Source: a virus (Duplodnaviria; Heunggongvirae; Uroviricota; Caudoviricetes). Taken from it: a stretch of DNA of 4,639 nucleotides. Each line of letters starts with the position of its first letter. The stretch's first letter is position 1. The translations under genes were made by a program, and so were the position numbers. The notes beneath the pieces were generated by a model, which saw only the letters and a program-made list of their open reading frames with translations, was not told the origin of the DNA and did not search any database. Location of the stretch: the IMG/VR virus record IMGVR_UViG_2734482591_000017; one strand, written 5' to 3'. Of the stretch, positions 1-4,579 are shown piece after piece.

Positions 1-127
1 GGCGGCCATCCATCCAGTCATCGGTTCGTCTGAGAATGACGTGCAACTGCGCACGCGACACCCGGAGACAACGGCTGACTAAGCTTACTCCCCATCCCCG
101 GGCAATAAGGGCGCGTGCGCTATCCAC
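1..127 (-). CDS. insD: IS2 transposase InsD (OrfB), N-terminal part only; 3' end lies beyond the window start
   Basis: GTG start at 127-125 (minus strand) gives [20 protein letters not shown]..., matching the IS2 InsD N-terminus from memory. It overlaps the insC 3' end, as expected for the -1 frameshift arrangement. Confidence 0.85.
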
Positions 128-450
128 TTTTTTGCCCGTCCATATTCAACGGCTTCTTTGAGGAGTTCATTTTCCATCGTTTTCTTGCCGAGCAGGCGCT
201 GGAGTTCTTTAATCTGCTTCATGGCGGCAGCAAGTTCAGAGGCAGGAACAACCTGTTCTCCGGCGGCGACAGCAGTAAGACTTCCTTCCTGGTATTGCTT
301 ACGCCAGAGAAATAACTGGCTGGCTGCTACACCATGTTGCCGGGCAACGAGGGAGACCGTCATCCCCGGTTCAAAGCTCTGCTGAACAATTGCGATCTTT
401 TCCTGTGTGGTACGCCGTCTGCGTTTCTCCGGCCCTAAGACATCAATCAT
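85..450 (-). CDS. insC: IS2 transposase InsC (OrfA), 121 aa
   Basis: The ORF track 85..495 contains [30 protein letters not shown]...LLPGDGE. The recognised InsC start is the internal Met (MIDVLGPEK) at 450; the stop is TAA at 87-85. Confidence 0.9.
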
Positions 451-541
451 CTGTACTCCAATGACTAGTCTAAAAACTAGTATTAAGACTATCACTTATT
501 TAAGTGATACTGGTTGTCTGGAGATTCAGGGGGCCAGTCTA

Positions 542-1676: not shown

Positions 1677-1688
1677 GCAGGTCAAAAA

Positions 1689-2543
1689 ATGAAACTGGAA
1701 GATTTACCGAAATACTACTCCCCAAAATCCCCTTGCCTGACCGATGCATCGGCCTCAACGTCAAAAGATGCGCTGAGTATCACTGATGTGATGGCCGCGC
1801 AGGGCATGACACAGAATCGGGCTGAGATGGGGTTTTCTGCGTTCCTGGGGAAAATGGGCATCAGTATGAATGACAGGGCGCGGGCAACAGAATTACTGGC
1901 AGATTATGCACTCAGTCGGTGCGATCGTGTGGCGGCGTTGAGAAAACTTCCGGCAGAAATAAAACCGGTAGTGATGCGCATTATGGCTTCGTACGCTTTT
2001 GAGGATTATGCCCGCAGCGCAGCGAGTAAAAAGCAGTGCCCTTGTTGCTATGGGGAAAAATTTATTGAAAGCGTAGTTTTTACAAACAAGGTCCAGTATC
2101 CGGATGGTAAGCCGCCGGTATGGGCAAAGTGTACGAAAGGTGTGTATCCGTCTTACTGGGAAGAATGGAAAAAAGTCAGGGAGGTGGTAAAAGTTGCCTG
2201 TCCGGAGTGTGGCGGAAAGGGTGAGGTTTCCACCGCCTGTAAGGATTGCCGTGGGCGTGGTGTCGCCATTCATCGTGAAGAGTCGGTAAAACGTGGTATG
2301 CCTGTTATCAGAGACTGCCAGCGTTGTGGTGGTCGTGGCTATGAAAGACTACCATCAACGGAGGCATTTAATGCTATATGCGAGGTGACAAACCAGATAA
2401 CACGCGCGTCATGGGAAAAAACAGTTAAGAAATTCTATGATGCGCTGGTGACTCGGTTTGATATTGAAGAAGCATGGGCTGAGCGGCAGTTAAAAAAGGT
2501 AACTAGGTTGATTTTTCCGGAATCTGTGGTAAATTCGTCATAA
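1689..2543 (+). CDS. Late-gene antiterminator Q-like protein (phage 82 / QuuQ-type) with DnaJ-like CxxCxGxG zinc-finger repeats; true start may lie in the N run
   Basis: First ATG after the gap (1689) gives a 284-aa ORF with repeated Cys motifs (CPCCYGEK, CPECGGKG, CKDCRGRG, CQRCGGRG). It lies downstream of rusA and immediately upstream of a promoter/terminator pair and phage tRNAs, the canonical Q position. Family assignment is from memory. Confidence 0.7.
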   Translation: MKLEDLPKYYSPKSPCLTDASASTSKDALSITDVMAAQGMTQNRAEMGFSAFLGKMGISMNDRARATELLADYALSRCDRVAALRKLPAEIKPVVMRIMASYAFEDYARSAASKKQCPCCYGEKFIESVVFTNKVQYPDGKPPVWAKCTKGVYPSYWEEWKKVREVVKVACPECGGKGEVSTACKDCRGRGVAIHREESVKRGMPVIRDCQRCGGRGYERLPSTEAFNAICEVTNQITRASWEKTVKKFYDALVTRFDIEEAWAERQLKKVTRLIFPESVVNSS

Positions 2544-2547
2544 CTAT
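2508..2547 (+). promoter_or_regulatory. Candidate late promoter pR' with promoter-proximal pause element (qut-like region)
   Basis: -35 TTGATT (2508-2513), 16-bp spacer, extended -10 TGgTAAATT (2527-2535). Predicted start is near 2542, followed by AACTAT at 2542-2547, a -10-like element resembling the lambda pR' AACGAT pause inducer. It overlaps the Q stop codon (2541-2543). Confidence 0.45.
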
Positions 2548-2583
2548 GGGCGTTTTATGCCTGACGTTAGAAGAGTTTCTACA

Positions 2584-2607
2584 ACCCGCCGCCGAGCGGG
2601 TTTTTTA
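2584..2607 (+). terminator. Intrinsic terminator (tR'-like) ending a short (~65 nt) leader RNA from the candidate pR'
   Basis: GC stem cccgc / gcggg (2585-2589 with 2596-2600), 6-nt loop, followed by TTTTTTATTG (2601-2610). Confidence 0.6.
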
Positions 2608-2645
2608 TTGCGGAATTAATTACGGACCGTTATTATTCTGCTCCC

Positions 2646-2721
2646 GGCCCTTTAGCTCAGTGGTGAGAGCGAGCGACTCATAATCGCCAGGTCGCTGGTT
2701 CAAATCCAGCAAGGGCCACCA
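2646..2721 (+). tRNA. ileZ: tRNA-Ile2 (anticodon CAU, presumably lysidine-modified); ileX/ileZ-like
   Basis: 76 nt with 7-bp acceptor stem GGCCCTT/AAGGGCC, D-arm GCTC/GAGC, anticodon loop CU-CAU-AA, T-loop TTCAAAT, discriminator A and encoded CCA. Very close to E. coli ileX as I recall it, so Ile2 is preferred over Met. Confidence 0.85.
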
Positions 2722-2820
2722 TCACAAACCGCCATTAGCTTATCAGGAAGAGCAGACGACACGATAACAGGGTTGTTGGTGCGGGGGCGGGTCCCCGATG
2801 GCGGTCCATTATCGGTATTC

Positions 2821-2897
2821 AGCGTTGTTAGCTCAGCCGGACAGAGCAATTGCCTTCTAAGCAATCGGTCACTGGTTCGAATCCAGTACAGCGCGCC
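2821..2897 (+). tRNA. tRNA-Arg (anticodon UCU, reads AGA/AGG); argU-like phage tRNA
   Basis: 77 nt with acceptor stem GCGTTGT/ACAGCGC (one G-U pair), anticodon stem ATTGC/GCAAT, loop CT-TCT-AA, T-arm ACTGG TTCGAAT CCAGT and encoded CCA. Confidence 0.85.
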
Positions 2898-3008
2898 ATA
2901 TTCATTCTTCCAGATTCCTTCCGGCAGAGCCTTATACTGAAATATACCTGGCTCAGGATATTGTTGAAAATATTTTATGTTTGTCAAAAATAAAAGTTCT
3001 GTTAAGTA

Positions 3009-3362
3009 TTGATTGAGTGTTTGTTATACGGTCTAATGGTTTTTTCAGCATTAAATATTTATCATTCATATGGTGTGGGTAGAGTGAATATTGATGAGGC
3101 GTCGGGGTGTTTCATCCTTAGGCAGCGTATTGATATAGTCAATGCAGCACGAGCAAAGGCCTTCAGCCGTTTGACAGTTTTGTTCTGTACTCCTGATCGT
3201 CTTTCGGGAAGAGACGTTATTATTCTGAATAGTGATGCTATACAGAGGGTTTGCGATGAGTTCATGGTTGCTAATTCAGAATTATTTGCTCTTGTTCAGG
3301 AGTACAACAGAATAGCCAGGACCTGTGGTATGGATGAACTTCGGATTACTCATCTGGGGTAG
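3009..3362 (+). CDS. Hypothetical protein, up to 117 aa; start ambiguous (TTG 3009, ATG 3036, GTG 3084), no convincing Shine-Dalgarno
   Basis: ORF track entry. It occupies the position of stxA in Stx phages but has no resemblance to Stx. Rare-codon rich (3 AGA, 3 AGG, 3 AUA). Could be non-coding or a decayed gene. Confidence 0.3.
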   Translation: MIECLLYGLMVFSALNIYHSYGVGRVNIDEASGCFILRQRIDIVNAARAKAFSRLTVLFCTPDRLSGRDVIILNSDAIQRVCDEFMVANSELFALVQEYNRIARTCGMDELRITHLG

Positions 3363-3442
3363 ATACATATCTGGATTATCACCTGTTACGGTAAAAAGTG
3401 ATTGCTTACTGTTTTTGTGAATGGCATTGCAGCAGCCGGATA

Positions 3443-3529
3443 ATGTCAGTGCTGGCTGACGGTGTGCTGGTGGCGGGTGTGGTGGTTGTTGCTTTCCCGT
3501 TGCTGAAAAAGAAAACGCCAGACTGTTAG
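3443..3529 (+). CDS. Candidate 28-aa hydrophobic mini-protein MSVLADGVLVAGVVVVAFPLLKKKTPDC (possible small membrane peptide); GTG 3398 would give 43 aa
   Basis: Read manually; below the ORF-track length cutoff. One predicted transmembrane-like stretch followed by KKK. Locally GC-rich codons (GTG/CTG/GGT) contrast with the AT-rich surroundings. Weak Shine-Dalgarno. Confidence 0.2.
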   Translation: MSVLADGVLVAGVVVVAFPLLKKKTPDC

Positions 3530-3670
3530 CCGGGTATCAGTTAGCGGGAGAAATTTTTAAATACTTCACAATTCAGGCGGTTGACTGTTGTCTGGTTTGC
3601 GGGGAGTTTGTTAAAAGAAACTGGCATGGTGAATCCCCCTGTGCGGAGGGGCAATCAGCGAGTAGGTATA

Positions 3671-3679
3671 TGGGATAAT
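3671..3679 (+). promoter_or_regulatory. Candidate extended -10 promoter element TGgGATAAT
   Basis: TG at 3671-3672, hexamer GATAAT at 3674-3679. No good -35. It would start a transcript of about 100 nt ending at the 3754-3790 terminator. Confidence 0.25.
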
Positions 3680-3753
3680 CGCGGATTCAGGTGCTGGTAC
3701 TGAATTCACCGGGAGGCACCCGGCACCATGCAATGGCACATAGCGCCACTCTC

Positions 3754-3790
3754 CAGCCCCTCTCCGGAGGGGCTGTTTATATTGATTTTG
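3754..3790 (+). terminator. Strong intrinsic (rho-independent) terminator, plus-strand orientation
   Basis: Perfect 9-bp GC-rich stem CAGCCCCTC / GAGGGGCTG (3754-3762 with 3767-3775), loop TCCG, then U-rich tail TTTATATTGATTTTG (3776-3790). Confidence 0.65.
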
Positions 3791-3807
3791 TCAGATGTGA
3801 GTAAACT

Positions 3808-3839
3808 CCTTATGGACTTTGTTGTTTTAGTCCATAAGG
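3808..3839 (-). repeat. Perfect 11-bp inverted repeat (hairpin) covering the stop codon and last codons of the minus-strand ORF
   Basis: CCTTATGGACT (3808-3818), 10-nt loop, AGTCCATAAGG (3829-3839). No clear U-tract follows on the minus strand, so it may be a 3' stabiliser or weak terminator. Confidence 0.45.
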
Positions 3840-4145
3840 ACATATTTGCAGAGTGCAACGGTTATTAAAGCATTCATTCAATACGTTATCTGTATTTGTA
3901 GGGCATTCCTGGCTATTTTTGATTGAATTCCAGAATGTTTTATTGAATGGTACTACGTTGTAAATGGTTACAGGTAGCACTTTGTTATTGAGCATGATGC
4001 CTGTGTGAGTCAGTGTAAATATACTTTCAGGAGGTAAGAAAGCATCCGATTGATACCAGATTATTAATTTTATTTTACTCCATATGACTGAAAAAGATAT
4101 TCCGCATGATGGCTGGATAACTGTATCAATCACAATCCACTTCAT
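3810..4145 (-). CDS. Hypothetical protein, 111 aa, antisense to the phage late operon; Trp/Ile/Asn-rich, no recognised family
   Basis: ORF track entry, verified codon by codon. ATG at 4145-4143 preceded by AAGGA with 6-nt spacing (plus-strand 4152-4156). Stop is TAA at 3812-3810. Six of its 13 Ile codons are AUA. Confidence 0.55.
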
Positions 4146-4185
4146 TTAGTTTCCTTGTTTATGCCTTGCTGGTGATGTTCTGAAA

Positions 4186-4212
4186 AGTATAAATGATATT
4201 TTTGAATGTAAA
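4186..4212 (-). promoter_or_regulatory. Candidate sigma-70 promoter for the 111-aa minus-strand ORF
   Basis: On the minus strand: -35 TTTACA (plus 4212-4207), 15-bp spacer, -10 TATACT (plus 4191-4186), about 40 nt upstream of the ATG. The spacer is short, so confidence is modest. Confidence 0.35.
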
Positions 4213-4405
4213 CCATAGAGCAGAATTATTTTTCTGATGTTGTTTATTGTTTATTTAAATGCAGGGTGGTTTATATCTCGTCTTGTAGTTTATCCATGCA
4301 TATCTGCTTGATAATCAGGTTTTTATTTAAGGTATGGTTTTGTGTTTTTTCTGTATTACATGTCAGGTATTTTAAAGAATTATTTTTCAGATGGTGGAAA
4401 GAACC

Positions 4406-4579
4406 ATGGCATTTAAACACTATGATGTTGTCAGGGCGGCGCCGCCGTCAGATCTTGCGGAAAAGCTGACACATAAACTGAAAGAGGGCTGGCAGCCGTT
4501 TGGTAGTCCGGTGGCCATAACCCCTTATACCCTGAGGTGTACTGGCAATAGCGGACACTACCATTTGTTCTTTTTTTAA
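4406..4579 (+). CDS. DUF1737-like small phage protein (57 aa from ATG 4406; ORF track starts at 4391), possibly the 5' part of a longer frameshifted gene
   Basis: MAFKHYDVVRAAPPSDLAEKLTHKLKEGWQPFGSP... matches the YDVVRA...LAEK...KLxEGWxPxG pattern I recall for DUF1737 proteins between Q and the lysis genes. GGTGGAAAG precedes the ATG. The ORF ends in TAA directly after a T7 run (4571-4577). Confidence 0.45.
   Translation: MAFKHYDVVRAAPPSDLAEKLTHKLKEGWQPFGSPVAITPYTLRCTGNSGHYHLFFF

Follow-up and report, generated by a model that had tools for sequence, protein, structure and literature searches.

A probable relic of the phage cargo gene tciB (DUF3927) in the late region of an Escherichia coli lambdoid prophage

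The TciB proteins (DUF3927) include P1 TciB, P7 Upf69.4, and TciB of phage JLK-2012; the "Tci" name derives from the similarity of TciA, the product of the neighboring gene, to TerB. P7 Upf69.4 is a 54-aa family member encoded directly behind terB, at the position that tciB occupies on the P1 map. No functional study of DUF3927/TciB was found in the searchable literature. The family is small (40 clusters at E ≤ 1e-3 among 1.84 billion representative proteins scanned), and family alignments show that intact TciB has a length of 49–57 aa and a fixed plan: an M-x-x-K-x-R N-terminus is followed by approximately 14 hydrophobic residues, then by V-D-F-[TS]-S-[RK]-x-[ML]-S-V-L-A-D-G, a second hydrophobic stretch, and W/F-P-L-x-K-K at the C-terminus. 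The two hydrophobic stretches make a two-helix hairpin plausible, although the AlphaFold2 model of canonical TciB is one continuous helix (residues 2–49, pLDDT 89). For most pairs of canonical tciB genes, dN/dS is 0.07–0.33 (maximum 0.5), with synonymous sites near saturation; thus, intact tciB is a genuine, constrained coding gene under purifying selection.

Intact tciB is the second gene of a pair. At every intact locus examined, its start lies on, or at most 3 nt from, the stop of tciA, a gene of approximately 141–168 codons for a TerB-domain protein; where the stop and start overlap, the overlap is GTGA or ATGA, and TciB is therefore made by translational coupling. TciA is encoded adjacent to or overlapping tciB in all six GTDB loci (Rosenbergiella, Pseudescherichia, Enterobacter, Pantoea, and others) and in all 76 full-length IMG/VR tciB loci, and is missing at all four truncated IMG/VR copies. 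The pair is also present in E. coli KE21, phage JLK-2012, and P7. In lambdoid phages it lies in the late region, with Q or tRNA genes on one side and the lysis genes on the other; P1/P7-type phages carry it as well. In a Pseudescherichia prophage (locus L007), an intact tciA-tciB pair is directly upstream of holin/endolysin lysis genes, and in an Enterobacter prophage (L009) it is approximately 0.7 kb upstream of such genes (locus coordinates approximately 2070–4040 for L007 and L009); this gene order hints at co-expression with the lysis genes.

Two other groups of known systems bear on the locus described here. TerB-domain systems include TerB of the ter operon and DjlA, the N-terminal TerB-like domain of which is tethered by a transmembrane helix. 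Intact TciB invariably occurs together with a stand-alone protein of the TerB-domain type, and we infer that TciB is a membrane partner of that protein, perhaps providing a membrane tether as the transmembrane helix does in DjlA. The type I toxins (Hok/Gef, TisB, Ldr, Ibs, ShoB, ZorO, and DinQ) resemble the ORF studied here in size and hydrophobicity, and in residing in prophage or accessory DNA, beside a small RNA gene.

The window (the entire 4,639-nt stretch analyzed) comes from a lambdoid prophage of E. coli, of which it represents the late-regulatory and cargo region. Positions 1677–4535 are 98.8% identical to the genome of E. coli 2013C-4991, and 3340–3800 are 100% identical. From left to right, the window begins with IS fragments, the start of rusA, a run of N, and the antiterminator Q gene, which ends at 2543 and is followed by a terminator (2583–2602). 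A plus-strand tRNA gene with anticodon CAT (2646–2721), called Met by ARAGORN and tRNA-Ile by RefSeq, marks the upstream limit of the cargo region, within which a tRNA-Arg (TCT) gene is also encoded (2822–2898, plus strand).

The ORF of interest (3398–3529, plus strand) extends from a GTG start to a TAG stop and encodes 43 aa (MIAYCFCEWHCSSRIMSVLADGVLVAGVVVVAFPLLKKKTPDC). The window contains 76 ORFs of at least 20 aa, and the length of this ORF alone is therefore insignificant; a chance ORF is ruled out by profile matches to Pfam PF13064 (DUF3927; 95.6 bits against a cutoff of 25, E = 1.7e-27) and to PHROG 1470 ("TciB-like"; E = 7.8e-13). RefSeq protein WP_000562553.1, which is already named DUF3927 family protein, is identical to the 43-aa product, has matching coordinates in E. 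coli 2013C-4991, and is found in this intact 43-aa form on at least 999 contigs. The 28-aa peptide singled out by the initial annotation is the product of a sub-ORF in the same frame (3443–3529, plus strand), the ATG of which (3443) corresponds to the Met within the R-I-M-S-V-L motif, an internal residue that is conserved in the family. It is the form annotated by RefSeq wherever GTG 3398 is mutated, and is present on 529 contigs. Thus, the small hydrophobic protein frame that had been described from the sequence is present, according to both the ORF listing and the DUF3927 match, but it belongs to an already-known family, and nothing in the window is new in this respect.

The compositional contrast with AT-rich surroundings, also noted in the initial annotation, is real: GC content is 0.54–0.56 over 3400–3549, compared with 0.29–0.45 upstream and 0.27–0.42 downstream of 3800. 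The ORF is rich in G and T (AT skew −0.48), and both this and the GC contrast result from runs of Val, Leu, and Gly codons. The STnc100 gene next to the ORF is equally GC-rich (0.52–0.56).

Relative to intact TciB, the 43-aa ORF is homologous over SSRIMSVLADG, the second hydrophobic segment, and the basic tail (here KKK), and it occupies the same slot, downstream of Q and tRNA genes and upstream of STnc100 and lysis genes. It differs in having no basic N-terminus, first hydrophobic segment, invariant V-D-F, tciA, native start, or Shine-Dalgarno sequence, so that the full-length architecture is not retained. Three of the seven invariant or near-invariant positions of the family alignment (R6, D21, and F22) are absent. 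Initiation at GTG 3398 instead adds an N-terminus, MIAYCFCEWHC, that is unrelated to TciB. No relative of solved structure was found in the PDB at E ≤ 1. A role in anti-phage defense was dismissed, as PADLOC gave no significant match for the peptide, canonical TciB, or the neighboring gene products; TciA had only a marginal PADLOC match (14.6 bits).

Nucleotide alignments to intact tciA-tciB (phage JLK-2012, E. coli KE21, and one MAG) show how the gene has been altered. Homology begins at approximately 3371, upstream of which the sequence is unrelated, and approximately 27 nt of the old tciA/tciB junction are left as a relic (3371–3397, plus strand) that covers the end of tciA and the region around the tciB start; it reads CTGGATTATCACCTGTTACGGTAAAAA vs. 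CTGGAGAATCATCTGTGACGGTAAAAA in canonical copies. The old Shine-Dalgarno sequence has changed from GGAG to GGAT (3373–3376), and the old tciB start from GTG to GTT (3385–3387). Codons 2–4 of the old gene (T-V-K) are intact at 3388–3396, out of frame with the remainder. From the T-V-K codons to the CAGCAG of the S-S-R motif, the distance is 32 nt in the window compared with 52 nt in canonical copies; the aligner places this loss of 20 nt as three gaps of approximately 11, 4, and 5 nt. The net loss thus accounts for the absence of the first hydrophobic segment and V-D-F from the ORF, and as 20 nt is not a whole number of codons, the old start no longer reads in frame with the remainder and now runs into TGA 3418–3420. 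The surviving C-terminal part is open from GTG 3398 or ATG 3443 only. Anti-Shine-Dalgarno pairing at these two codons is −3.0 and −3.3 kcal/mol, respectively, against a window background mean of −2.95 kcal/mol, whereas the canonical E. coli-type tciB start combines −6.4 kcal/mol with stop-start coupling; the ribosome-binding site at either codon is no better than background.

These alignments provide the nucleotide homology to a known larger gene that would mark the ORF as a remnant. The earlier suggestion of a gene remnant therefore holds insofar as a known gene is concerned, but what remains is the C-terminal two-thirds of a 49–57-aa gene. A fossil N-terminus of a large membrane or secreted protein, as had been proposed, is ruled out, the homology being to the C-terminal part of a 54-aa gene.

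A tblastn search of the whole window found no tciA, and the ORF is thus not coupled to a TerB-domain gene. With no such gene in the window, the job of the TciA-TciB pair is impossible from this locus alone. The tciA slot is filled by an unrelated 117-aa ORF (3009–3362, plus strand; PHROG 2873, function unknown; E = 3.8e-70). This ORF has no PGAP annotation in the 98.8%-identical genome of E. coli 2013C-4991 and shows no sign of purifying selection among 120 copies (S:N = 7:16); it may not be a working gene.

Other E. coli copies of tciB are disrupted in different ways. In EJN001 and phage 640R1, a tRNA-Arg fragment is fused into tciB at approximately codon 8, and there is also a 1-nt frameshift in the second hydrophobic segment; in WCHEC4533, only the last 22 or so codons are left; and in GPEC1354 and STEC367, GTG 3398 has become GTT and RefSeq calls only the 28 aa. 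These copies have decayed independently. Some DUF3927 DNA is present in 1760 of 5426 complete E. coli genomes, and 1184 of these 5426 genomes contain the window-type junction, defined as a match covering at least 80% of window positions 3370–3560. The truncated, single-segment DUF3927 peptide is accordingly encoded in about one-fifth of complete E. coli genomes, including O104:H4 and ST131.

For a population sample, 120 IMG/VR loci with the window-type junction were aligned over 2899–3800. Seventeen distinct substitutions fall in the ORF (12.9 per 100 nt), a density similar to that of the flanking intergenic DNA (13.6 and 9.2 per 100 nt) and approximately twice that of the neighboring ORF (6.5 per 100 nt). 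A change at 3400 abolishes the start in six of the 120 loci, a nonsense change at 3419 is present in two, ATG 3443 is lost in one, and one has a 3-nt deletion. Within the 28-aa part, four of six nonsynonymous changes fall in MSVLADG, the most conserved motif of the family (P = 0.04); an L-to-P allele of the motif is found on at least 1000 contigs and a G-to-C allele on 795. In the frame of the ORF there are nine synonymous and eight nonsynonymous changes, against an expected synonymous fraction of 0.28 (P = 0.025); P is 0.07 when start loss is counted as disruptive, and 0.05 for the 28-aa part alone. Six frames were tested, and one antisense frame shows the same substitution periodicity as the ORF frame. 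Across the 120 copies, constraint on the ORF appears mostly relaxed, with possible residual constraint on the C-terminal peptide.

Downstream of the ORF is the gene for the small RNA STnc100 (Rfam RF02076; 3595–3784, plus strand; 132.4 bits against a gathering score of 47), which ends in an intrinsic terminator at 3754–3775. STnc100 is a conserved downstream neighbor of tciB in E. coli- and Salmonella-type prophages, and is also found in loci L001–L003 and in viral tciB loci; the tciB-to-STnc100 distance is 15 nt in Salmonella-type loci and approximately 66 nt in E. coli-type loci. The STnc100 HMM, which is E. coli-trained, gave no match in most of the more divergent tciB loci (those with 49–51-aa forms). 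STnc100 is a known prophage small RNA that occurs in multiple copies: EDL933 has 11, one of which was confirmed by Northern blot (PMC5331693), and STnc100 is related to PasD (bioRxiv 10.64898/2026.05.13.724894). In phage vB_EcoS-640R1 (L002), a frameshifted tciB relic is followed by two tandem STnc100 copies, at locus positions 2665–2858 and 3134–3322 (138 and 132.5 bits, respectively). In RefSeq, a partial pseudogene for a "hypothetical protein" is annotated on the minus strand across STnc100 (approximately 3614–3739), which looks like an annotation artifact.

Taken with its homology and genomic setting, the ORF at 3398–3529 likely derives by decay from the phage cargo gene tciB (DUF3927, PHROG 1470). 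It is probably a non-functional relic and, being already annotated in RefSeq, is no new toxin. Recombination has taken tciA out of the prophage; the junction has lost its Shine-Dalgarno sequence and GTG start; and the 5′ coding part has become shorter by a net 20 nt, with loss of the first hydrophobic segment and VDF and a break in the frame. The remnant presumably persists mainly by its position between neighbors that are kept in a very common E. coli prophage lineage (tRNA genes and cargo upstream, STnc100 downstream). Any transcription of it would occur within the Q-dependent late transcript, and it most likely no longer performs the job of TciB.

An alternative is that translation of the truncated peptide (28 or 43 aa) from the late transcript continues, with a retained or gained function, for instance as a single-pass membrane modulator, or as a fragment that interferes with TciAB from other phages, either co-resident or incoming. 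In favor of this, most copies have an intact ORF, which is very widespread; the peptide keeps MSVLADG as well as the second hydrophobic segment; and there is a weak synonymous excess (P of about 0.03–0.07), which under this reading would arise because the truncated peptide is active on its own. We nevertheless consider it unlikely: the partner gene, coupled start, and Shine-Dalgarno sequence are gone, leaving pairing of background strength; R6, D21, and F22 are missing; start-loss and nonsense alleles and radical motif changes are common; substitutions are as dense as in intergenic DNA; and tciB has been truncated independently several further times. The specific proposal of a peptide that is made while the late prophage genes are transcribed and is active in its own right, as a membrane modulator or a fragment that poisons TciA-TciB of competing phages, is quite improbable. 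It is also very doubtful that the DNA is kept because it serves STnc100 as a promoter or leader, in a non-coding role to which the open frame is incidental. The 3′ end of tciB does stay joined to STnc100 in every decay state, a −35-like TTGACT lies at 3581–3586 (TTGACA in a distant MAG), and there is a promoter-like site at 3415–3444; yet the six promoter-like sites in the region are no excess over the 4.0 ± 2.4 expected from shuffles, many EHEC prophage copies match the STnc100 module only from approximately 3554, past the stop of the ORF, and in Stx2 phages STnc100 is 75 nt downstream of the stx2 operon (PMC12370729). The last two observations indicate that STnc100 needs no sequence from the ORF.

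The initial annotation had raised a type I toxin-like peptide and suggested looking for an antisense RNA on the opposite strand. In such a locus, a membrane-depolarizing peptide would be repressed by an antisense or partly complementary small RNA, and the general shape is consistent with this: a short hydrophobic peptide with a basic tail, and a small RNA gene adjacent. However, the search for the antisense RNA was negative, with no Rfam antitoxin family (Sok, IstR, OhsC, Sib, Rdl, SymR, OrzO, etc.) at E ≤ 1 and nothing promoter-like on the minus strand near the ORF. STnc100 lies downstream and is co-oriented with the ORF, and complementarity between the two is a single imperfect 10-nt match that was created by one of the allele-specific deletions and is absent in canonical copies. 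Unlike type I toxin genes, the ORF has no evident divergent antitoxin RNA, promoter of its own, or long 5′ UTR; its ancestor is cistron 2 of the protein-coding tciA-tciB operon rather than a stand-alone cassette, and Shine-Dalgarno pairing at background strength offers no sign of a regulated initiation region. There is likewise no PADLOC match and no sequence relationship to any toxin family. With an operonic ancestry and neither an antitoxin RNA nor an antisense promoter, a type I toxin-antitoxin locus is extremely unlikely, and the toxin-like interpretation is not upheld.

Reading the ORF as a tciB relic has value that is mainly curatorial. RefSeq contains many 24–43-aa "DUF3927 family protein" fragments from E. 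coli and Shigella, and these appear to be truncated relics of the two-gene tciA-tciB cargo unit; they should be neither counted as intact small proteins nor mined as candidate toxins. The comparison also clarifies the intact family: TciB is a membrane protein of 49–57 aa whose gene, in phage late regions, is strictly coupled to one for a stand-alone TerB-domain protein, so that tciA-tciB is a defined two-gene system for testing TerB-type functions.

Several other features of the window were observed. A minus-strand gene for an IraM-like anti-adapter (3810–4145; NF007393, 162 bits against a cutoff of 121) is cargo of an RpoS-stabilizing type in the prophage late region. A 12-nt perfect inverted repeat (3807–3818/3829–3840) forms a hairpin that overlaps the 3′ end of this gene, around its stop codon (3810–3812). 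Further downstream, a cut-off plus-strand gene (4391–4579) encodes the N-terminus of a DUF1737 protein (Pfam); in E. coli 2013C-4991 the gene is intact, as a 1851-nt SASA/NanS-p-type esterase gene. The window diverges from E. coli 2013C-4991 at 4536, and the unrelated sequence beyond is probably an inserted mobile element. A weak plus-strand match to the Rfam "Trp_leader" (2503–2609) scores 25.7 bits where the gathering score is 41; it overlaps the terminator at 2583–2602 as well as the end of the Q gene, and most likely represents the pR′/tR′ region of the late operon rather than a trp leader. Assembly gaps comprise a single N at 543 and the N run at 1427–1676, and to one of these gaps the window owes the absence of most of rusA as well as of the beginning of the Q gene. 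Positions 1–1000 are a patchwork of IS fragments, including an IS3-family orfA-like ORF (85–495, minus strand), an IstB-like C-terminal fragment (approximately 544–730), and a 160-nt direct repeat, in which 383–541 recurs at 785–944 with 99% identity.
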